A stretch of DNA of 64,000 nucleotides from Promethearchaeota archaeon (GTDB lineage: Archaea; Asgardarchaeota; Lokiarchaeia; Sigyniarchaeales; SOKP01). A program made the translations under genes and the position numbers. The stretch spans positions 3,316-67,315 of the forward strand of contig RDOE01000004.1 of the NCBI GenBank assembly GCA_011364975.1, written 5' to 3'. Positions 29-17,318 of the stretch are shown piece by piece. Below the pieces are notes generated by a model. That model ran no database searches and was not told the origin of the DNA. It saw only the letters and a list, made by a program, of their open reading frames with translations. Positions within the stretch are counted from its first letter, which is position 1; every line of letters begins with the position of its first letter.

Positions 29-3000
29 TTATAAATCTGGTATTAATTTAAGTAACGTAGCTACAGCACTTCCAATTTCTGTGGTTTGATTTAACTCATT
101 AATAAGATGAAGACTCTTTAGCTTTTCAATAGTTTTATCTATATCTTTTGATAATTTGAGATTTCTTTTATTTAAATATTTATTAATTTTCATAATGTCT
201 GTAGAGCCATCAAATATTGCAAATAGAATGTTTTTATCATCAGAATCCATGTGTTTTATATATTTTTGAAATTCGGCGATTAAATAATTTGTACGGGGAT
301 TGATTGCAAAGACAACTTTATCAGACTTAAGTTTTTGGATGCTCTCAAAAGATTTAATTTCCTCTATGCCTTTTGTTTTAAGATGGTTGATTAATTCTCG
401 TAAGTAAAAGTTAGATTCGAAATCTTCACTGCGAGCTATTACTATTATTTTTTTATCTACGTTATTTGGCATTGATGATTTGAGATAATCTTGGACTTTA
501 GTCTCTACGATTTGATGAGGATATAATAAGTCAGCTTCGAAAATATCCTCAATCATTTTTGTTACAGATGCGTCATCAAATACTTCACCAGAAAAGCTAA
601 TAAGTCTCTCCTTATAAACTTCTTCAAAAAAATGGTTAAAGAACTTAAGTTTCTCTTTTAAACTATTACTTGGGCGTCTTAAAAGGAGAAGTGCAACTCT
701 AGTATATTTACCTTCATTAAGTATAATTTTAAATTGTCTATAAGATAGCTCTTCTAATCCACCTACTCCTTCAGTAATCTTTGAACCAATTTCTTGTCCA
801 AATGAGGAAATGGCACTTAAAAAACCGGATATTAATGTCTCATCTATTGGTACATCCGCCAGACTTTTGCTAAAGCATGGGACTCCTCCATCACTAGTTA
901 GAATGATTATATATGGGATATTTTCCACATCAGATAATTTTTGATAAAGATTTTTCAAAGCTTCCACTTTCCTGCGTCTTTTTGGAACAACAACACCACG
1001 ATGTATGATAAAGATAAAAGCAACCAAAATTCCAACGGCAATTATGATATAAGGTACAAGATCTAGAAAGATTATGAATTCATTTATTACTCTGAAATTA
1101 GCGGAAGTTAATTGTGCGCTCTCATAATATTCTTCTCCAATATAATCAACTTTAATTTTATAATTATTTCCTACGGATAGGTCTAAAGATCCAATTGCAA
1201 TGCCATTTTCACAAATAGCAGTGAAATTATATATCAAATTATCATCATTATCTAGAATTTGAAAAAGGATAAATAACCCATCCAACGGATTACCTAATTC
1301 ATCGGTTACCCAAACTTCAAAAGAATAAGTACCATACATATATTGAGTTTGAGGAGGTTCTCTAAATTCCAGTTGGACTTGGATTTTTGGACTTATAGGA
1401 AAGCTAAAATTTAAAGAATACCCCTCTATTTTATTCGTCCCATCAAAAACAATGGTTAAATTTAAATCACCAGTAAAAGAGTTTGGTATGCCGTATAAAT
1501 AAACTAGCGTATTATTTTCCCCAATTAATCCCGTATAAATTTCTATAGTTGTTCCATATCTGAAAGTAAAAAATATCGGAAGATTCTGGAGGATTATTGA
1601 ACTATTTTCACAATAAAGATGTATTTCAAATCTTATAGTTTGACCAAATCTCATGACACTTGGTAATGGTTGCATGCTAAAGTTTGAAGTCCACTTTGGT
1701 TGGATTAGATCAAACTTTGAGGTGATATTATAAGCCACTGTGGTTGATCCGAGGTATTCGAAATATATTGTCAGATTCATCTTCCCATTAGCTATTTCCG
1801 GTATTTCATTATAACATAAACCGTTCTCATCTGTGTAAAGTTGATTGGTGACAAATGGGATATCAAGTTGATCATCATAATATGCTGAAAAGAAAATTAT
1901 TCGATTTTGAAGAGATTCACTCCCTTCTGTTATATTTATTTGTAAAGCATATCTAGCAGAATATCCAACTCTTAATACATTTGGATATTGAATAATGTTT
2001 AACATTATAGGTATTTTTCCTTGAATAATTTTCGTGATTTTCGCCGAAGATGCTGCAATACTGCTCTGTCCTTGATAATATGCATGGATAGTTATGTTCT
2101 GTCCTTTATATTGTTGAGGTATAATATATTGATAAGTGCTAATACCTTCGATATTTGTAATAGTTGTTATTATAAAATTCTCTGTTAGACCTACACTTAT
2201 ATTTAGATAAATGATTTGTCCTTGTATTGGGGTTGAATTTATAGCATAAGTTAATGTTGTTCTTATCTGAAACTCTTTTAATATTCTTAAAGTGGTCGGA
2301 ATTGAAATATCTAAAAGAGTAGCATCTTGAGGCAATATCGTAAAATTAATAATGTTACTTTGGCTATCTGCACAATTAATAGAAGAACCATTGATATATA
2401 TTGCATAACCTCCCGGTAAAAGACCCGATAGGTAAATTTGTTTCTGGTAAACCCCACTCATTAAGAATCCCAAAGATCCATTGAGTTTGAATGTTGTTCC
2501 TTGATATATATAATATGTTAAGTTAGCATTATTGTTTGGCTTTGGATTGAGGGGATCGATTTTATTAACAATAGTAGCGGTTGCTAAGATATTACCTTCT
2601 GCATATATCGGTTGAATATTTTGCAGTGAAATTTGAGTAGGAATTTTATCAATGAAGATAGTAATATTTACGTGTTTTATATCATAACCACTGGCGGAAC
2701 ATCTGATTTTTAAAGTTTCATTTTCAACAAACTGAGAATCCACTTTTTTAGTAGCATTTAATCCTGTTGTGTTCAATGTAAGATCATATAATCCATTTCC
2801 GATTTCTACAGCTTTAAAATAATTTTCAGTCATACCAATAGTACCAAGGACCAAACCTCCTGTTACAGGAATACCACCATCAGTTAAGTTGACCCGAATC
2901 ATACTATTAATGGTATCATTAACATAAGGAATATTATTAGACGATAAAACCCACTTCGAGTCTATTTCAGATGCGCCTGATACTATATTAAATTCGAAAA

Positions 3001-5794
3001 AATTTTCTGCTATAATCTTAAGAGAAGTGGTTAATACTTGCGTTTCATGAAGATATTTAGAAAACACAAAATAAATAGGATAAGTACCATTTGGGGCTCC
3101 TTCTGTGTATAGAGGAATCGAATAATTGCCTTGCCCTAAATAGGAGATATAACCAACTTGATAGGAACCAGTCCACACTCTTCCCCATAATCTAAGAGTT
3201 CCTGTAGAATTTTCATACACCTGTATCGTTGCACCAGATATCCCCCATCCTAAGTAAGTGGAATAATTGATCCCGAAATAGGCGGTCTCTCCAGAGGATA
3301 CTTGGCTAATCAATGAAGAAAATTCAGCATGAGTCTTATTAAGGATAAAAAACTCCATAATATAAGAACCAAATCGTAAAGCTTTACCAGTTTCAAGGTA
3401 ATTTGAGGTGTCATTCCAAAGAAATCGCAAATAATACTTCCCAATAGCATATTTTTCATCTAAATTTAGATTACCCTCTATTTTATCGTTATTTGAAGGA
3501 AAATGTTGAGGAAATTCGTTTAATAAGTTGCCAATTCCGTTGTATAGTTCAATCGTATAATTACCCATAGTAGATTCAAGCAAACTAAGATTATATAATA
3601 TTGAATTATAAGAATAAAAAGCTGGTAAACTCGAATATAGCACTGTGTTGTTAAACTTACCTGAAATAATGTAATTAGGTTGATATCCACGTAATGTCCA
3701 ATTTCCAAGCCTAAATGCACTAAAAATCGTAGCACTTTGAAGATTAAGGCTTGGTGTATGATTAAAAAGGAATAGATTCTCAGTAAAATCTGTTAAAGTG
3801 GGAGTTAATGCTTCGAAAATCTCCCAGTTTATACTATTTGATGCGTTTAAATCAAAAGCAGGCATATCAAGATATGAAATTGCATATCCAGATAAATTAA
3901 AGTATGGAGTATAATTCGCATAAAGCAATTGATTATAGGAAAAGCTATTGTCATATTTAATGTTCCATATACCTCTATCAGCGTTAGATCCAGGTATTGA
4001 ATAACTAGCAAAAGCTCCTAATGGTGTTTCAAAAGTGATTGCTAAACTTGATTTAAAGTTTAGGTATAATTTATCTTCTAAACTTAAATTATAAGTTAAA
4101 AATTGGAAACTATGTTCCGATCCTCCAATCCAATCGGAAATATTGATATAATGTACTCCCTCTGTGACATTATCCCATATAGGGGCGTTATCAGTATTGA
4201 TATATAAACGTGAATTAGAAATGGTTTGTTTGTAATTTATTGTAAAATAAACATCATCTAGATACGAGATGTAATCTATTTCATTATAATAATTGTTTTC
4301 AAATGCTACTCCGATTTTGAAGGCCAAATTATTTACCTTTAGGAGTTCTTCATATTCCTGGGAAAGACTAAAGCTCATATGGTGCCACGGTGTACCAGAA
4401 TAATCATCATAACTAACCTCTGCCATCGAAAAAGGAAGAACCCTTACATTTTGATAATTACTAGTTTCCAAGTCTCCAAGATAAAGGACTATAGAAGCAT
4501 CATTATCAAATTTAAAGGGATTTACTCCAGTACCATCAACATCAATTAATTTATAGCTGTAATCTAAACGAGCAACTTCATATTTCGTTGTGGTATTATA
4601 AAGGATTTCTATTGATTCAAAATTAACAGAAATTAAATCTTCATCTCCTCCATGGCTTGGAGCTCTAGCCCAAGCTCCAAAGTCAAATTTATTTATTCCA
4701 ACTAATCCATTGATTAAATTAGTTATGTTATAGGTACGCGATATAGTGCCATGATTGACATGGCCTATAATTTCTGGATTATTATATACCATTAGAGCAG
4801 TATCAGAACCATTATAAGGTATTTCTCCTTCCTTTGAAATCCAATTATTTCCATTGATGTACTTATTATTAATCCGAGCAATAATTTCATATTTATCTTC
4901 GGTTTCAAAGGTAGACTGTTCATCAAGACTCCATGTAATAGTCATTTGAGCATAATCTGCCTCATATGGTACTAAAATGTAATACCACCAAGCCGCTGAA
5001 GGGTTTCCTCCAAAAGAGTAACTACTTGGATCAATAATAAGCTTCAAACTTGAGAGTGATTCCTCGTAATATAAGTCTATGAAATCATAAAGAGGTTTGT
5101 AAATTCCACCATAAGGGCTTTCTGAATCCTTATAAAATCCTGGATTTGTGTTAAAAGAGTTAAAGTTTAATATAGTTTGATCTTCTTTCTGTATGATCCT
5201 CCCTCTTTGAATGGGTAAACTCTGAGGATTTATATCCAGTAAATTCTGTGTCCAAAAGGCAAAATCACCGGGGTAGAAAGCAGGGGTGCTTCTATCCTTG
5301 CTGTTATAGATTCTTGTTCTCCCATAATTATAATCCTTTAAATCGTATTGTATAAAATACCCATCACCACTCTGTCTTTTTTCTGTCCCCCAAAAATCGT
5401 ATTCATATTCAAAGGGAGAATCTTGAACTATTTGTTGTTTTGAATATGGTTCAATTTCAAATTGCATCGAAGATGCATTCCATAAGTTGGGTGTAGTGAT
5501 GTTAAAGTAATTATTTGGGACTGCGAGATGATCGTTTTCAGTAATTGTACTAGTAGCATTTTCAAGGGTTTTAAAATGAGTAGTATTAATTTTATTATAT
5601 CCTCCTATATCCCCAGAAATGTCAGATGAATGATAGAAACCTGGTTCATATGCAGGATCAAAATTCTGAGTATAATTATTATTATTTAAATCAACAATAC
5701 ATTCATTAAATTTAGACCCTTCAGAAATAACAAGAAATAAACAAAAAATAAATCCCATAATTGCGAATTGTGTAACTTTTTTATTTTTCTGCAA
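29..5794 (-). CDS. Giant (1921 aa) single-pass surface protein. It has an N-terminal signal/anchor, a very long sequon-rich beta-rich ectodomain with Ig-like repeats, one TM helix, and a roughly 320-aa cytoplasmic tail with a longin/roadblock-like alpha/beta module.
   Basis: Uninterrupted 5.8-kb ORF. Hydrophobic N-terminus FAIMGFIFCLFLVISEG. Dozens of N-x-S/T sequons (NITT, NASS, NATST and others). Hydrophobic span LVPYIIIAVGILVAFIFIIH is followed by basic PKRRRK. Tail motif is YIIILTSDGGVPCFSKS...DETLISGFLSAISSFGQEIG...FKIILNEGKYTRVALLLL. TTG start is preceded by a GGGGTGG SD-like box 6 nt upstream. Confidence 0.75.
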   Translation of the reverse strand: MQKNKKVTQFAIMGFIFCLFLVISEGSKFNECIVDLNNNNYTQNFDPAYEPGFYHSSDISGDIGGYNKINTTHFKTLENATSTITENDHLAVPNNYFNITTPNLWNASSMQFEIEPYSKQQIVQDSPFEYEYDFWGTEKRQSGDGYFIQYDLKDYNYGRTRIYNSKDRSTPAFYPGDFAFWTQNLLDINPQSLPIQRGRIIQKEDQTILNFNSFNTNPGFYKDSESPYGGIYKPLYDFIDLYYEESLSSLKLIIDPSSYSFGGNPSAAWWYYILVPYEADYAQMTITWSLDEQSTFETEDKYEIIARINNKYINGNNWISKEGEIPYNGSDTALMVYNNPEIIGHVNHGTISRTYNITNLINGLVGINKFDFGAWARAPSHGGDEDLISVNFESIEILYNTTTKYEVARLDYSYKLIDVDGTGVNPFKFDNDASIVLYLGDLETSNYQNVRVLPFSMAEVSYDDYSGTPWHHMSFSLSQEYEELLKVNNLAFKIGVAFENNYYNEIDYISYLDDVYFTINYKQTISNSRLYINTDNAPIWDNVTEGVHYINISDWIGGSEHSFQFLTYNLSLEDKLYLNFKSSLAITFETPLGAFASYSIPGSNADRGIWNIKYDNSFSYNQLLYANYTPYFNLSGYAISYLDMPAFDLNASNSINWEIFEALTPTLTDFTENLFLFNHTPSLNLQSATIFSAFRLGNWTLRGYQPNYIISGKFNNTVLYSSLPAFYSYNSILYNLSLLESTMGNYTIELYNGIGNLLNEFPQHFPSNNDKIEGNLNLDEKYAIGKYYLRFLWNDTSNYLETGKALRFGSYIMEFFILNKTHAEFSSLISQVSSGETAYFGINYSTYLGWGISGATIQVYENSTGTLRLWGRVWTGSYQVGYISYLGQGNYSIPLYTEGAPNGTYPIYFVFSKYLHETQVLTTSLKIIAENFFEFNIVSGASEIDSKWVLSSNNIPYVNDTINSMIRVNLTDGGIPVTGGLVLGTIGMTENYFKAVEIGNGLYDLTLNTTGLNATKKVDSQFVENETLKIRCSASGYDIKHVNITIFIDKIPTQISLQNIQPIYAEGNILATATIVNKIDPLNPKPNNNANLTYYIYQGTTFKLNGSLGFLMSGVYQKQIYLSGLLPGGYAIYINGSSINCADSQSNIINFTILPQDATLLDISIPTTLRILKEFQIRTTLTYAINSTPIQGQIIYLNISVGLTENFIITTITNIEGISTYQYIIPQQYKGQNITIHAYYQGQSSIAASSAKITKIIQGKIPIMLNIIQYPNVLRVGYSARYALQINITEGSESLQNRIIFFSAYYDDQLDIPFVTNQLYTDENGLCYNEIPEIANGKMNLTIYFEYLGSTTVAYNITSKFDLIQPKWTSNFSMQPLPSVMRFGQTIRFEIHLYCENSSIILQNLPIFFTFRYGTTIEIYTGLIGENNTLVYLYGIPNSFTGDLNLTIVFDGTNKIEGYSLNFSFPISPKIQVQLEFREPPQTQYMYGTYSFEVWVTDELGNPLDGLFILFQILDNDDNLIYNFTAICENGIAIGSLDLSVGNNYKIKVDYIGEEYYESAQLTSANFRVINEFIIFLDLVPYIIIAVGILVAFIFIIHRGVVVPKRRRKVEALKNLYQKLSDVENIPYIIILTSDGGVPCFSKSLADVPIDETLISGFLSAISSFGQEIGSKITEGVGGLEELSYRQFKIILNEGKYTRVALLLLRRPSNSLKEKLKFFNHFFEEVYKERLISFSGEVFDDASVTKMIEDIFEADLLYPHQIVETKVQDYLKSSMPNNVDKKIIVIARSEDFESNFYLRELINHLKTKGIEEIKSFESIQKLKSDKVVFAINPRTNYLIAEFQKYIKHMDSDDKNILFAIFDGSTDIMKINKYLNKRNLKLSKDIDKTIEKLKSLHLINELNQTTEIGSAVATLLKLIPDL

Positions 5795-10397: not shown

Positions 10398-13010
10398 TTA
10401 CCTCTTTCTCGTTAATTTCATTACAAAACTTGTAAACAGCATTCCTAATATCATTGGTATAATTCCAATTCCTAGTATAGCAAAAAAGAAGTATGAACTA
10501 AGAGTATTAAAGTATGCATTCATGAATAATTGGCCCGCGGAATCGATAAGATAATGGGTTATGATACTAGGAACTAAACTTTTAGTCTGAATGAACATAT
10601 ATCCGAATAGTAAGCCTAGAAATGTAGCAAAAACAACTTGGATTATTGTAGCAATTAGATTTTGGCCTCCAATCAAATTAACAAAGTGAAATAACCCAAA
10701 TATTACTGAAACTACAATTAAAGATGTGAACTCCGTATATTTTTTTAAATTCATTGTGGTCATAACACCTCGAAATGAGATCTCTTCCCATATCCCGGGG
10801 ATTAACATTATCACGAAATAAAACCATCCTAATCTGAAAATTGTAAGATTTGGAATACCAAATATAACTTCTAAGTCAAAATAGTAAGTCCCAAAAATGT
10901 TTGCCATAATAAATGAACTTAAAAAGAAAATTATCGAACATCCAAGTCCAATTATGATATTTCGTATAAGATTATCTCTTAAATTTAACCCGATTGATTT
11001 TGTAAATCCTCTAAGCTTTTGGTTTCCTATTGGTAGATGAATAACACGAGGAACAATAATTAACCAAAGTAAAACCATAAATCCAAAGGAAATAAAGAAA
11101 TCAATAAATAATAAGACGATATCTGGAATTACATCTACAATAAAAATTAATGGAAGCTCAATAAATCCGGGTAAGAATAGGAATATACCGTATAAAATTA
11201 AAAGTACCACTGTACCCCCCATAGGATATTTTCGGAAGCTTTCACGTATACTTATCATCTCCTTTCTACCAAACTCCTTTGGAAACATACTATTTAGAGA
11301 TAAAATAAGAAGAATTATAGCTATTAAGCTAGTACCAGCAAGAACAATTGTCATTATTATTAGGTCGCCAAATAACAAGAATAAACTTCCGATAAGAATA
11401 TATCCCGCTAGAATTAAGAATTGTGTTATAATCAGAGCTGTCCATTTCATTACTTTTTTCTCAGGGTTAACCTCCTCTAAAACAAATTTATACTTCATTC
11501 TACCAAACATACGAATCTTCATAGAAAAAGCATTAAGTAAAAATAAGAGTGCAATTGGATACCATGAAATAAATAAAGGAATAAATGGTCTCAATGAGGG
11601 AGTTATGAATAATATTACAATAACGGGTAAGAAAAAGGAAACCGTCTGAATAATAACAAGTAATATAAGTTTAGCTTTTGCTTGGTCACGAGGATTTAGA
11701 GGTAAAGCCGCCGTTATTGTTGCACCAGTATCTTCTACGTTTAAAAAACCTGATACAATCATGAGGGAAATTATTGGTTGATAAAACATTAAAAAACTCC
11801 AAAAAGCTATGAGATAACTAAAAATATCTCCAAATTCTCCACTTGGTATAAAACCAAATACGAAAACGATAAGAAGTGGCATTATCATCGGCATGAGGAG
11901 AAACATAAACATCTGAATGTCCCGAGTAGCTATTGAGAGATCTTTTTTAATATACGATTTAATGGGAGTTACTTTTTTAATTGAAATTATTTCATCTCCT
12001 GATTGTTTTAATTTATTTTCTCTTGCTTTTTTGACAATAAGTAAAGTTGAAGAAGTGATGGATCTCATTGATTTTACAGCTTTATTATACAAAATCATTG
12101 TTAATAATATTAACAGAAGCATCCCAATTATTGTTGGTATCCACTGAATAGGTGGAAAACTTAAAGGATCCATCAGCATAGTTATAAGAATACTAGGCGC
12201 AAATGGAAAAGGAATCATACTTATGAAAAATATAACAATATAGGAAACATTCATTGCCGAAACTATTATAAAAAATGAACCTATAGCACTTACTGCCCAT
12301 TGAATAAATAATGATGCCGACATTACTACTATTATATAAGCCAGCATTGTAAAAACACGAATCATGGTTGATTTTTTAGATCCTGCGCTTTCTACCTTTA
12401 ATATTCGCCCTATTTTCTCTGCGACTAATATTAAAACACTGAAGGCCAATATTACTTGAAGTATTGAAATTAATGAGCTAATTATAATTAGAAGGAAATT
12501 TTGACTAAGAATTCCAATTACTAATGGAAAAGATAGGATCATCATAATAAATGCGAGATCTAAATTTCGAAGAACTGTTATAAAGCCTAATTTTTGCAAT
12601 CTATTTTTAGAGAGAGGTAATGTTTCAAACCACTGAAAAACTTCTCCTGACATCATAGAACCAATTGCGAACATACCCATAAACGTCAAATATACTAATT
12701 GCATCCCAAAAAAGATTCCAAACATGATACTTCCGCCAAATAAAATAGATTCTATTGAAATTGTGCCACTATTTATAAATTCAGTAAGTGGAAAATAAAA
12801 CACAACAATTAATATAGCGGCCATCCCAAATATGAATCCATAGGCAAATCTCATGGCAAAAACTTGATATTTTATTGAATTCTTGTTTTTCTTAAACTTT
12901 TCCATCAATCTTGCTTGATTCGCTCCAGACGATTGCACTTGGGAATCTAATACAATCTCTAAATTCGTATATTTTGCTAGTTTATAAAGTCCAAGCTTAT
13001 TTCTACTCAT
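10398..13010 (-). CDS. Polytopic ABC-2-type permease fused to a C-terminal CPBP (CAAX/Abi) intramembrane glutamic protease domain, copy 1.
   Basis: 870 aa and almost entirely hydrophobic. The C-terminus carries the three CPBP motifs: PGIWEEISFRG (EExxxR), FGLFHFVN (FxxxH) and THYLID (HxxxD/N). Sits 14 nt downstream of an ABC ATPase gene. Confidence 0.75.
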   Translation of the reverse strand: MSRNKLGLYKLAKYTNLEIVLDSQVQSSGANQARLMEKFKKNKNSIKYQVFAMRFAYGFIFGMAAILIVVFYFPLTEFINSGTISIESILFGGSIMFGIFFGMQLVYLTFMGMFAIGSMMSGEVFQWFETLPLSKNRLQKLGFITVLRNLDLAFIMMILSFPLVIGILSQNFLLIIISSLISILQVILAFSVLILVAEKIGRILKVESAGSKKSTMIRVFTMLAYIIVVMSASLFIQWAVSAIGSFFIIVSAMNVSYIVIFFISMIPFPFAPSILITMLMDPLSFPPIQWIPTIIGMLLLILLTMILYNKAVKSMRSITSSTLLIVKKARENKLKQSGDEIISIKKVTPIKSYIKKDLSIATRDIQMFMFLLMPMIMPLLIVFVFGFIPSGEFGDIFSYLIAFWSFLMFYQPIISLMIVSGFLNVEDTGATITAALPLNPRDQAKAKLILLVIIQTVSFFLPVIVILFITPSLRPFIPLFISWYPIALLFLLNAFSMKIRMFGRMKYKFVLEEVNPEKKVMKWTALIITQFLILAGYILIGSLFLLFGDLIIMTIVLAGTSLIAIILLILSLNSMFPKEFGRKEMISIRESFRKYPMGGTVVLLILYGIFLFLPGFIELPLIFIVDVIPDIVLLFIDFFISFGFMVLLWLIIVPRVIHLPIGNQKLRGFTKSIGLNLRDNLIRNIIIGLGCSIIFFLSSFIMANIFGTYYFDLEVIFGIPNLTIFRLGWFYFVIMLIPGIWEEISFRGVMTTMNLKKYTEFTSLIVVSVIFGLFHFVNLIGGQNLIATIIQVVFATFLGLLFGYMFIQTKSLVPSIITHYLIDSAGQLFMNAYFNTLSSYFFFAILGIGIIPMILGMLFTSFVMKLTRKR

Positions 13011-13024
13011 ATCAATTAAGAACC

Positions 13025-13819
13025 TTATTTACCATTTTTGAAGGATTTCCGTAATTTTTGCACAATTTCAATTACACTAGTATCTTGTTCGGTTAAACGT
13101 AGAAATACATCCTCTAAATTAGCTCCTAATTTGTTTGCCTGTTGTCTTAACTCTTCAATTGTACCTATGCCAACCATTTTACCTTTATTAATAATTCCAA
13201 TACGATTACATAATTGTTGAGCTATTTCCATGATATGAGTAGAAAAAAGAACAGAACCCCCATTTTCAATATGAATATCTAAGATCTCCTTTACCACTTT
13301 CACGGATTTAGCGTCTAAACCAGCCAAAGGTTCATCTAAAATAAGTAGATCAGGATCATGCAGTATTGCAGCTATTATTTGGACTTTCTGCTTATTTCCA
13401 TGAGATAAAGTGGCGATAAGTTGCTCATAATAATCACTTGCCCCTAAACTGTCCATATATTCCTGAGCCTTAGCAGACACCTCTTCCTCGTCAAGTTGGC
13501 GAATAGAGGCTATAAAGCTAAATAGATCTTTTGGAGTAAGAGATTTAAAAATTAAAGGTTCTTCTGAAACATATCCAACTCTCCTCTTAATTTCCACTTC
13601 TTCCTTTTCAGGGTTCATACCGATAACTGTAATCTCACCGTCATTTGGTTCAAGTAAGCCCAATAATAATTTAATAGTAGTTGTTTTTCCAGCACCATTA
13701 GGACCTAAAAGTCCAAAAACTTCGCCCTTTTTAACATCAAATGAGATACCATCGACCGCTTTTACATCTCCAAAATATTTCTTTAAATTTCGAACAGAAA
13801 CCATCATATTATTATCCAT
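13025..13819 (-). CDS. ABC transporter ATP-binding protein, copy 1.
   Basis: Walker A GPNGAGKTT, signature LSHGNKQK, Walker B LLILDEP, H-loop STHIM. Confidence 0.9.
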   Translation of the reverse strand: MDNNMMVSVRNLKKYFGDVKAVDGISFDVKKGEVFGLLGPNGAGKTTTIKLLLGLLEPNDGEITVIGMNPEKEEVEIKRRVGYVSEEPLIFKSLTPKDLFSFIASIRQLDEEEVSAKAQEYMDSLGASDYYEQLIATLSHGNKQKVQIIAAILHDPDLLILDEPLAGLDAKSVKVVKEILDIHIENGGSVLFSTHIMEIAQQLCNRIGIINKGKMVGIGTIEELRQQANKLGANLEDVFLRLTEQDTSVIEIVQKLRKSFKNGK

Positions 13820-13831
13820 TTTTTAACCTCA

Positions 13832-16501
13832 TTATATTTGTTTTTCTAGTAATTTATTTTCAATTATCACACTTTTACTATTCCAATTTTTAGAGATAAT
13901 TCTTATAAAAAGAATGTCAATAATTGTGGGCAATATTCCTATAAAAACAATCATAAAAATCATCAATTGAATTACAGTATCGATTTGAGTTATTGAAAGT
14001 ATCAATCCTACAGTATTAATTAAATAGTGAACTATTATACTGGGAATTAAACTATTTGTTTTAATAAAAAGATACCCTAATAATAATCCCAAAAAGAAGG
14101 TGTAAATGACTTGAAATAGTACAGTTATAATGTTTCCTCCTGATAATAAAACATTAATGGCATTAAATGCATGTGCTAATCCAAAGAAGATACTACTAAT
14201 GATAATTCCTGTTATTTTTGAATATTTCTTCAATAACATAGGAATCATAACTCCCCGAAATGCAACTTCTTCCCAAATACCTGGCTGAAGCATAAATATC
14301 CAGATAAACCACCCGTAACTAAAAAACCCGGGAATCAATGGATTTGGGTCTCCAAATAATAATTCCGGAGCAAAAATAAAATTTCCCAAAAGGTTAGCAC
14401 CAATGAAAACTATAATACCATAAATAATAAACGAGCCTACACCTACCATTATATTTCTACCAACAGGTTTAACTTTTGATATTCGAATCTCCTTAGTATA
14501 GTCCTTAAATGATTTATTTTTACCAAGGAGTTTCAAACCCTTCGGAACAATATATAACAGCAAAAGAGCAAAGAATGCTTGTACCCAAAGAAATTCTATA
14601 ATTATTATTGCTACGTAAGGTAAACTCAGCATCCATGGTATAAAGAAAATTGACTCTAATAAGAAAGCGATAAAAGGAAATGCATTGAATAAAAGAAATA
14701 CTACAGAATTACCAATGATTGGTTGTTTCCTTAAAAATCCCCCTGTTTCATAACTTGGCATCTGTTCTGCTTTAGGAAACATCTTATATAACCCAAATAT
14801 TAGTAAACTTAAGCTGAATAATCCTATTAAAAATGCACTGCTTATGGCTGCGATTATTCCAAATAACGTAAACATAATTGAATTAGCGATTAATATTATG
14901 AAATATACCCCTAACTCGGCAGCTATCATGGCTATCCACTTCATAATTTTATGTCGTGTGTTGACCTCTTCCAGAACATATCGATATTTCATTTTTCCGA
15001 ATAAGGAAACTTTCATTTCAAACATTAGTAATAAAAAGGTCCAAATAATTGGAAGACTACTAAGCATTAGACCTAAAACAATGATTGATTGAGTTTGAAT
15101 CGTTAGTATAATGCTCATAAGAATCATTGAAAGGCTATGAATCGTTAACATCAATAATATTTTTGCTTTCATTTGATCTCGGGGTACCAGTGGTAATGAA
15201 GCCAATATTGAAGAACCTGATTCTTCTATGCTTAAAAGACCCCCTACCAGAATAATAGGAATGAAGATATTAGCTCCAATGATAATTGACCATAAAATCA
15301 TAATACTTACCGGTGATGTAACTTCTCTGGATATAGGAATTTGCATTGAAAAGAGCATAACTAATGGAAATACGATAGGCATAAGAATAAAGATTAATGA
15401 TTGATAATCTTTTGTAGATGCAATAATATCTTTCTTGATATATGCCTTTACAGGAGATATTATATTAAGATCTATTTCAACCATTTTTCGTTCTAACTCT
15501 TTTGGTTTCTTAGCCTTTCTATATTCAAATTCAGTAGTTGATACCGCCTTTAAAGATCTAACGGCTATATAATACATAATAAAGGTTATAAACGCAAAAA
15601 TCGCTATCCCGATTAACGTTGAGAACCAAATAACAATAGGAACTTGTCCAGGAATCATAGTTATTCCCACTAAAAATCCAGGAGCTAAAGGAAAGGGAAT
15701 AATACTTAGTATTATTGCAATTATTTCCGTCGGTGGTGAGATACTTAATGAAATAATGAGGTCAAAGATTGCATTAAATCCTATATTTAATACTAGCCCC
15801 GTGCTAAATGCAATAAAGAAATAACTAAGTAAAGATATAATCCTAAAAATATTTCTTTTTTTAGATTTCGTTCCTCCCTCTGAAAAAAGTCTACTAAATT
15901 TTTCTCCTATAATTATTAAGATACTCACGCTAAACATTGTTATAAGGAATGAAGAGATTAAACTCATTAAAAATGTAACTATATTCTGGGTCATGATTAA
16001 TAATGCTATTGGAAAAGAAAAAATCATTAATATAATCATCACCCCTTGACTTCGAAATAAACTCATATACCCTAACTTTCCTATTTTGTCTTTTGAAAGT
16101 GGTAGTGTTTGCAACCACTTGAATGCATTACCCGTCATCAAAGAACTAGTAGTAAATAAGCCAAAAAGCACAATATACAAGATTAATATGATATAAAAAG
16201 TGGTTATAAATGAACCGAAAATTATAATTGCTCCTTCATTTGAAAGAGCATAAGCATTGATTTCCCCTAAAAGTTCAAAGTAAAAGATAAAACTTAGAAA
16301 TGGAAAAAAGATCATTAATATTGCAGAAACCAATTTTAATGCTATTACTTGGTTTCTCACATAATTCTTATTCCTCTCAAATTTTTCCAATAATTTTGCT
16401 TGATGTGCTCCTGCTGACATATATTGAGATTCCATAGTGATCTCAAGTAAAGGATATTTGGATAACGAATAAAGTGAAAGTGGTTTATCTTTTTTTCTCA
16501 A
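13832..16501 (-). CDS. Polytopic ABC-2-type permease fused to a C-terminal CPBP intramembrane protease domain, copy 2.
   Basis: 889 aa and colinear with 10398..13010. The N-terminus LSLYSLSKYPLLEITMESQYMSAGAHQAKLLEKF matches LGLYKLAKYTNLEIVLDSQVQSSGANQARLMEKF. CPBP motifs are PGIWEEVAFRG, FGLAHAFN and VHYLIN. Confidence 0.75.
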   Translation of the reverse strand: MRKKDKPLSLYSLSKYPLLEITMESQYMSAGAHQAKLLEKFERNKNYVRNQVIALKLVSAILMIFFPFLSFIFYFELLGEINAYALSNEGAIIIFGSFITTFYIILILYIVLFGLFTTSSLMTGNAFKWLQTLPLSKDKIGKLGYMSLFRSQGVMIILMIFSFPIALLIMTQNIVTFLMSLISSFLITMFSVSILIIIGEKFSRLFSEGGTKSKKRNIFRIISLLSYFFIAFSTGLVLNIGFNAIFDLIISLSISPPTEIIAIILSIIPFPLAPGFLVGITMIPGQVPIVIWFSTLIGIAIFAFITFIMYYIAVRSLKAVSTTEFEYRKAKKPKELERKMVEIDLNIISPVKAYIKKDIIASTKDYQSLIFILMPIVFPLVMLFSMQIPISREVTSPVSIMILWSIIIGANIFIPIILVGGLLSIEESGSSILASLPLVPRDQMKAKILLMLTIHSLSMILMSIILTIQTQSIIVLGLMLSSLPIIWTFLLLMFEMKVSLFGKMKYRYVLEEVNTRHKIMKWIAMIAAELGVYFIILIANSIMFTLFGIIAAISSAFLIGLFSLSLLIFGLYKMFPKAEQMPSYETGGFLRKQPIIGNSVVFLLFNAFPFIAFLLESIFFIPWMLSLPYVAIIIIEFLWVQAFFALLLLYIVPKGLKLLGKNKSFKDYTKEIRISKVKPVGRNIMVGVGSFIIYGIIVFIGANLLGNFIFAPELLFGDPNPLIPGFFSYGWFIWIFMLQPGIWEEVAFRGVMIPMLLKKYSKITGIIISSIFFGLAHAFNAINVLLSGGNIITVLFQVIYTFFLGLLLGYLFIKTNSLIPSIIVHYLINTVGLILSITQIDTVIQLMIFMIVFIGILPTIIDILFIRIISKNWNSKSVIIENKLLEKQI

Positions 16502-16502
16502 A

Positions 16503-17318
16503 TTATTCCATCTCTTTTATTTTTGATTTGTAAGATTTCCTTAATTTCTTTACAATCTCAACCACAGAATTATCTTGTTCTGTAAGCCTCAGAAATACCT
16601 CTTCTAACCGCGCTCCCATTTTATTCGTTTGTTGTTTTAATTCTTCAAATGTCCCAATTCCCACAATCTTTCCCTTATTGATAATTGCGATACGATCACA
16701 CAATTCTTCAGCCAATTCCATTATGTGGGTTGAAAATATCACAGAACCTCCTTTCTCTGTATGAATATCTAATATCTCTTTAACTACACGCACACTTTTT
16801 GCATCAAGCCCTGAAAGGGGCTCATCAAGAATTAGTAAATCGGGTTCGTGAATAATTGAGGCAATTATTTGCATTTTTTGTTTATTACCATGAGATAGGG
16901 TTGCGATTATTTGTTGATAATAATCAATTGCTTCCAAACTTTCTAAATATTCTTTTACTTTTTTAGTGGTTTCTTCTTCATCTAATTTTCTTATAGATGC
17001 AATAAAATTGAATAAATCTTTTGGTGTGAGTGATTTAAAAATTAAAGGTTCTTCTGATACGTATCCAACACGACTTTTAATTTTAACTTCATCTCGCTCA
17101 GGATTCATACCAAATATCTTAATCTCTCCACCTAAAGGTTCAAGTAATCCCAGAAGAAGTTTTAGAGTTGTAGTTTTTCCAGCACCATTAGGACCTAAAA
17201 GTCCAAATACTTCTCCTTTATAAACATTAAAACTGATGTCATTTACAGCTTTCACATCATCAAAGTATTTTTTCAAATTATGTACGTTAATAATTTCACT
17301 TTCTATCATACTCATCAT
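16503..17318 (-). CDS. ABC transporter ATP-binding protein, copy 2.
   Basis: GPNGAGKTT, LSHGNKQK, LLILDEP. By eye, most residues are identical to copy 1, for example the shared run VGYVSEEPLIFKSLTPKDLF. Confidence 0.9.
   Translation of the reverse strand: MMSMIESEIINVHNLKKYFDDVKAVNDISFNVYKGEVFGLLGPNGAGKTTTLKLLLGLLEPLGGEIKIFGMNPERDEVKIKSRVGYVSEEPLIFKSLTPKDLFNFIASIRKLDEEETTKKVKEYLESLEAIDYYQQIIATLSHGNKQKMQIIASIIHEPDLLILDEPLSGLDAKSVRVVKEILDIHTEKGGSVIFSTHIMELAEELCDRIAIINKGKIVGIGTFEELKQQTNKMGARLEEVFLRLTEQDNSVVEIVKKLRKSYKSKIKEME

Follow-up and report, generated by a model that had tools for sequence, protein, structure and literature searches.

The gene and its natural occurrence

The window (the whole stretch of DNA that was analysed, 64,000 nucleotides, G000:C149:3316-67315) belongs to a 3.74-Mb genome with 31% GC that is 99% complete, a Lokiarchaeial (Promethearchaeota) metagenome-assembled genome from sediments. 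Its minus strand carries one intact open reading frame of 1921 aa with a TTG start (29..5794), whose product, P0001, is identical in length and sequence to the public gene call P0155. Public records for proteins of this type read "hypothetical" or "Ig-like domain-containing", with the Ig-like part or nothing annotated. The features of the protein are, in window coordinates:

29..5794, minus strand: whole open reading frame, 1921 aa plus stop codon (public gene call P0155; piecewise metagenome coverage)
5705..5794, minus strand: N-terminal signal-like segment, residues 1-30 (KNKK, then hydrophobic residues 5-30, hydropathy peak 2.0)
1079..5704, minus strand: ectodomain, residues 31-1572, ~1540 aa, with 47 N-x-S/T sequons
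1103..2293, minus strand: four tandem Ig-like repeats of ~105 aa each (Big_1/MG4-type), residues about 1168-1564 (hhalign)
1004..1078, minus strand: single transmembrane (TM) helix, residues about 1573-1597 (hydropathy peak 3.03)
923..1003, minus strand: basic juxtamembrane stretch and helix, residues 1598-1624, HRGVVVPKRRRK (hydropathy and model)
524..922, minus strand: longin domain, tail residues 23-155, protein residues 1625-1757 (AlphaFold2 model, Foldseek, HHalign)
278..523, minus strand: middle small alpha/beta domain, winged-helix-like, tail residues 156-237 (model; tentative)
32..277, minus strand: C-terminal winged-helix domain, tail residues 238-319 (fold search, weak profile match)

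Metagenome contigs from four different studies cover the gene piecewise, mostly at 95-99% identity or higher; no single contig spans it whole, and two of the four runs leave gaps. No indels are listed where these contigs cover the gene, so the frame is intact in natural populations over the covered parts. Near-identical DNA was found in 20 runs from 7 studies, mostly of marine, estuarine and mangrove sediment, and no RNA run carrying the gene's DNA was found among the public runs listed.

Contigs from two metagenome studies share about 12 densely clustered substitutions at window positions 842-1037, in the stretch coding for the last part of the TM helix, for the juxtamembrane helix and for the opening strands of the longin domain. 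The cluster could stem from strain variation or from recombination of this segment.

The ectodomain

The earlier note on this DNA, made from the letters alone, had described an ectodomain of about 1,500 aa packed with N-x-S/T sequons, and the counts bear this out. The protein contains 48 sequons, 47 in the ectodomain and one in the tail, where 5000 shuffles of the ectodomain gave 22.2 ± 4.2 sequons and never more than 38 (z 5.9). Read backwards, the motif is seen 27 times. NxT outnumbers NxS (32 vs 15) despite serine being the commoner residue. Nine orthologs also show a 2- to 3-fold sequon excess, with 0-2 sequons in their tails. The same genome encodes an oligosaccharyltransferase of the STT3/AglB type (G000:C113:44860-45438, 128.5 bits). 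Because it is so rich in sequons, the ectodomain is probably N-glycosylated.

The same note had proposed repeated Ig-like units, and close to the membrane repeats of a probable Ig-like type could be recognized; no assignment was obtained for roughly the first 1100 residues. An hhalign self-comparison of a profile built from 18 collinear orthologs gave at least four tandem units of ~105 aa (probability 85-97%), and many orthologs match Big_1, MG4 or Big_3_5 (PF02369 or PF17789) at the equivalent place; in ortholog P0004, the equivalent last unit passed Pfam MG4 (33.5 bits vs a cut-off of 24.7). Language-model features (ESM Atlas) of residues 880-1575 scored 0.93 to archaeal Ig-like repeat clusters. 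P0001 itself, however, has no Pfam match, Ig-like families included, and self-BLAST found no repeats in it; the units are visible only with profiles. Among the collinear orthologs, the ectodomain is 23-57% identical, compared with 27-74% for the tail.

Topology and membrane anchor

Only two segments of the protein are strongly hydrophobic, residues 5-30 and about 1573-1597. Hydropathy places the second at 1004..1078, matching the single TM helix located earlier at 1005..1065, and the 319 aa that follow it correspond to the tail of about 320 aa described there. The TM helix is followed by KRRRK, within the basic stretch HRGVVVPKRRRK, and by the positive-inside rule the tail is therefore cytoplasmic, as had been supposed. 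The sequon split of 47 in the ectodomain and one in the tail agrees with this orientation. P0001 is a type I membrane protein, and the Asgard archaeon encoding it is Lokiarchaeial.

The longin domain of the tail

It had been suggested that the tail be modelled and compared with Robl_LC7 and longin structures. AlphaFold2, with an input alignment of 50 tails, returned a confident fold (mean pLDDT 88.2) that falls on the longin side. DSSP assigned to the model, in tail numbering, strands 26-31 and 37-42, helix 50-68, strands 80-83, 86-92 and 96-102, and helices 108-124 and 139-150, which is the beta-beta-alpha-beta-beta-beta-alpha-alpha order of longins. The beta-beta-alpha-beta-beta-beta-alpha order read from the sequence at 600..930 is thus reproduced, at about 524..922. 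The modelled domain superposes over its whole length on solved longin domains, and the best 50 Foldseek matches were all longin or roadblock proteins, with SNARE, TRAPP, adaptor and Fuzzy longins as the top matches among those 50 listed.

The first reading had called this module longin/roadblock-like, and only the longin half of that description stood. Roadblock/LC7 and MglB (PF03259) have a related alpha/beta sandwich, and MglB, LAMTOR and an Asgard Roadblock3 are found further down among the Foldseek matches. Where the tail departs from Roadblock proteins is in the pair of helices following beta-5, whose alignment is that of longins. By HHalign, the family longin profile matched two standalone Fuz_longin_1 proteins of the same genome (94.6% and 95.0%) and a longin-Arf-like GTPase fusion of the same genome (96.5%), whereas six Robl_LC7 proteins of that genome gave probabilities of 1.1% or less. 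We therefore assign the domain to the longins and not to Roadblock/LC7. Sub-threshold Robl_LC7 matches were seen in 3 of 50 family members (best E 3.4e-4) and P0001 had none.

The link to a curated longin model is transitive, from the family profile to the same-genome proteins and from these to Fuz_longin_1, whose gathering score the two standalone longins pass (42 and 30.5 bits vs 26.1). P0001 has no direct Pfam longin match; Pfam and NCBIfam searches with the whole protein and with the tail gave nothing meaningful, and a sequence-profile search of the PDB with the entire tail found no significant match.

Conserved tail positions are D20, N23, G35, D49, L52, G55, F56, A59, F63, E66, R97 and A99; in an alignment of family tails, P2, D20 and N23 are nearly invariant. 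Prediction of a tail homodimer (two copies) scored 0.41 against a mark of 0.42, which we count neither for nor against dimerization.

The middle and terminal domains

Two further parts of the tail, both absent from the first reading, lie beyond the longin: a small winged-helix-like domain and, at the C-terminus, a winged helix. The middle domain (tail residues 156-237) was modelled confidently, in the order helix-strand-helix-helix-strand, and its assignment is tentative since the fold searches barely covered this region. An Atlas cluster with HTH_47 in half of its members aligns over tail residues 23-235.

A separate model of the C-terminal half of the tail reached a pLDDT of 90.4. In it, the three-helix bundle plus beta wing of the predicted terminal domain superposes on solved winged-helix domains. 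Sequence profiles gave weak matches of this domain to MarR, ZitR and CheF-C (E about 3e-3), and Foldseek with the C-terminal half returned no match at E 0.001 or better.

An Asgard-wide family

The search for paralogs with the same tail that the earlier note had proposed showed that P0001 has many relatives, several per genome. An exhaustive HMMER search with the tail yielded 750 clusters at 50% identity (E up to 0.001; 42 below 1e-30), and all named homologs are Asgard. The labels on close homologs are Promethearchaeota, Lokiarchaeota, Hodarchaeota, Heimdallarchaeota or Sigynarchaeota, which marks the host as a Loki-type Asgard archaeon. The three best structural matches in the ESM Atlas are unannotated Promethearchaeota clusters. 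The common module of the family corresponds to tail positions 1-230. It is present in 140 of 151 sampled Asgard genomes, in 24 of 27 families and in all 72 high-quality genomes, usually with 5-15 matches per genome. Among homologs with more than 60 residues upstream of the module, 112 of 123 have a TM helix directly before it, and their N-terminal parts contain a median of 3.7 sequons per 100 aa. The receptor-like architecture singled out as unusual is thus real and conserved, but it is no oddity of one protein.

The genome of P0001 holds seven strong copies (107 bits or more) plus weaker ones, among them a second giant protein on contig C195. Pfam searches on five paralogs of this genome, including a protein with about 10 TM helices, gave no matches. 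That protein (L037, 745 aa, G000:C183:6746-8980, minus strand) has its ~10 predicted TM helices followed by a longin at the C-terminus (70 bits); the longin module is therefore also joined to a polytopic membrane domain. A soluble paralog of ~457 aa with the longin-winged-helix module (G000:C137:25709-27109, plus strand; L025-L036) occurs in 12 genomes of the family. A 514-aa protein (L014:9386-10927, plus strand; P0032 and P0209) carries leucine-rich repeats (LRR) before the longin-winged-helix module and no TM helix, under the labels Sigynarchaeota or Promethearchaeota. The outer parts joined to this one longin module thus vary, from giant Ig-like ectodomains through a 10-TM domain to soluble LRR or other N-termini.

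The cultured Ca. Lokiarchaeum ossiferum has an ortholog (NEF87_001973), so experiments are possible.

Comparison with known longin systems

The eukaryotic longins compared were the N-terminal domains of Sec22b, VAMP7 and Ykt6, the TRAPP subunits Bet5, Trs23 and sedlin, the adaptor sigma and mu subunits, zeta- and delta-COP, and Fuzzy/Mon1. Sequence identity to P0001 is only 6-16%, and P0001 has no SNARE motif. Its longin also follows the TM helix, C-terminal to a giant extracellular domain, whereas longin SNAREs have the reverse layout, with an N-terminal longin and a C-terminal anchor.

Standalone Fuz_longin_1-type longins and longin-GTPase fusions of the same genome are homologous to the tail (hmmsearch E 1e-7 to 5e-9, HHalign 95-96.5%), but they are soluble proteins of 140-300 aa that lack an ectodomain, a TM helix and winged helices. 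A much tighter subfamily is made up by the TM-linked tails, at 107 bits or more vs 34 bits or less for the soluble longins.

Published work already covers the expansion of longins and roadblock proteins in Asgard archaea, as well as fusions of longins to GTPases and fusions of NPRL2-like longins (bioRxiv 10.1101/2020.10.19.343400; PMC12290439; PMC11188069). Passages of one of them report Asgard longins fused to prokaryotic signalling domains (bioRxiv 10.1101/2020.10.19.343400), and the architectures quoted from it do not include a giant ectodomain joined to a TM helix. Its NPRL2/NPRL3-like Asgard longins (Liu et al. 2021), as excerpted, resemble P0001 in that the longin is followed by small C-terminal domains; P0001 differs in having no NPR2 Pfam match, no GP motif and no NPRL2 or NPRL3 among the 50 structural matches listed. 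We found no description of giant surface proteins with a TM-linked longin-winged-helix tail in the searchable literature.

The gene neighbourhood and the GTPase question

Longins in solved systems dock small GTPases or form GEF, GAP or adaptor platforms, and Fuz_longin_1 is the longin found in the Rab-GEF subunits FUZ, MON1 and HPS1; longins also have partners that are not GTPases, such as SNARE motifs and coat subunits. By analogy with longins of eukaryotes, the tail might serve in GTPase-type signalling or cytoskeleton anchoring, as the earlier note had suggested.

The genome contains 71 Ras-superfamily matches and 11 roadblock proteins. Outside the window, at G000:C150:2108-3001 (plus strand), lies L015, a 298-aa open reading frame with a longin at residues 5-127 and an Arf/Ras-like GTPase at residues 132-264 (Arf E 1.2e-16); its N-terminal longin is related to the tail family. 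This fusion is the one specific hint at a GTPase link.

No small-GTPase gene was found near the P0001 gene on the contig of the window. Of six related loci, five of them full-length orthologs and the sixth a soluble LRR form, only two have a GTPase within 10 kb; for 71 GTPases spread over 3.7 Mb, chance alone would give ~30%, about the rate seen. No gene neighbourhood at all is conserved among the P0001 gene and the ortholog loci: the DeoC aldolase, two paralogs, MBL-fold protein and zinc alcohol dehydrogenase that neighbour it in the window are not kept beside the orthologs. For the soluble 457-aa paralog, a small GTPase was found within 6 kb at 5 of 12 loci; we rejected this as linkage because four of the five loci come from one genus.

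Two other arrangements were noted in the window. A paralogous pair of 281 and 282 aa with no Pfam match lies upstream of the P0001 gene (7031-7876 and 8073-8921, minus strand) and is not kept beside the orthologs. At 10398-17318 (minus strand) is a tandem duplicated gene pair, in each copy an ABC ATPase (264 or 271 aa) and then a membrane protein (870 or 889 aa), the latter with a C-terminal Rce1-like/CPBP intramembrane protease domain.

Interpretation

The architecture and folds of P0001 are very probable: a large ectodomain, variable and rich in sequons, has Ig-like repeats on its membrane side, a single TM helix follows, and the longin/winged-helix tail is better conserved. By analogy, this tail is likely to be a protein-docking platform, whereas a small GTPase system as its partner is a tentative proposal. 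On the whole, we lean towards a surface protein whose tail docks a shared cytoplasmic partner, the likeliest being a small GTPase or its longin/roadblock carrier. The outer part would bind or shield something at the cell surface, and the docking platform would tie each surface protein to one shared cytoplasmic partner. That partner would most readily be one of the ~70 small GTPases of the genome, or a longin/roadblock protein carrying one, given the analogy with SR-alpha and SR-beta, TRAPP, Mon1-Ccz1/Fuzzy and the adaptor sigma/mu subunits. Docking might then couple the surface to the cytoplasm or sort the surface protein. We count in favour of this the confident longin model, the Fuz_longin_1 homology, the L015 fusion, the 71 Ras-superfamily matches, the conservation of the tail, the support for a terminal winged helix, the near-confinement of sequons to the ectodomain together with the STT3/AglB gene, the TM helix in 112 of 123 homologs and the presence in 140 of 151 genomes. 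Against it stand the lack of a GTPase gene near P0001 and of any conserved neighbourhood at the loci compared, the chance-level two of six loci, the missing GP motif, the missing direct Pfam longin match and the non-GTPase partners of other longins; sharing a fold is, moreover, no proof of sharing a function.

The family might instead be a structural surface coat, which we consider unlikely. The ectodomain would be a glycocalyx, an adhesin or an S-layer-like protein, and the tail would only anchor it, self-assemble laterally or act as an export or sorting signal, with neither signalling nor a GTPase. The many paralogs per genome with fast-evolving, sequon-rich ectodomains are consistent with such a coat, as are the lack of a conserved signalling neighbour at the loci compared and the frequent pairing of longin and roadblock domains with each other in these families. 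However, anchoring would not call for a tail of 230-320 aa with three folded domains, conserved better than the ectodomain, and the same module is carried by soluble proteins with no surface part.

We give still less credence to a membrane-tethered transcription regulator, in which the terminal winged helix would bind DNA at the membrane or after proteolytic release and the longin would sense or dimerise, in the manner of ToxR/CadC-like one-component systems. Among solved folds, the DNA-binding wHTH regulators RosR, MarR and PadR are indeed closest to the last 80 aa, the profile E-value to such regulators is about 3e-3, and the source of one short family member calls it a 'predicted DNA-binding protein'. 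But the N-terminal winged helix of Rio2 is the joint top fold match, and winged helices commonly bind proteins too; the net charge of the terminal domain is only +1. Moreover, tail positions 230-319, which hold this domain, occur only in the close ortholog group of about 1900-2000 aa, while most members end after the ~230-aa module or have other C-termini.

A catalytic, NPRL2/FLCN/SMCR8-like longin that would stimulate Rag- or Arf-like GTPases at the membrane to hydrolyse GTP is very improbable: two sources describe Asgard NPRL2-like and FLCN/SMCR8-like longins (bioRxiv 10.1101/2020.10.19.343400; PMC12290439), and among 148 members the glycine before beta-2 (G35) is kept in 93% and the candidate arginine-finger position R97 in 80% (K in a further 10%), but GAP-type longins carry, where beta-2 begins or immediately ahead of it, a GP motif (PMC12290439), which the family lacks since G35 is followed by V, L, T or I and never by a conserved proline (P at +2 in only 19%), no family member scanned has an NPR2 or folliculin Pfam match, NPRL2 and FLCN are absent among the 50 structural matches listed, and the nearest Pfam family by transitive search is Fuz_longin_1.

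A surface protein with a docking tail accordingly remains our preferred reading. A more far-reaching and rather doubtful version of it is that these proteins are Asgard transmembrane or cargo receptors, in which variable glycosylated ectodomains would be wired through a common longin-winged-helix tail to small-GTPase or coat-like machinery. If so, they would represent a prokaryotic forerunner of the ways in which eukaryotes connect surface receptors to GTPases or adaptors, and would give a direct handle on the targets of the Asgard 'trafficking' proteins. Asgard genomes are rich in longin proteins, roadblock proteins and small GTPases. Here, a phylum-wide, multi-copy family sets a longin directly under the membrane on large, probably glycosylated surface proteins, and it offers a concrete, testable meeting point of the cell surface and the longin/roadblock/GTPase machinery.
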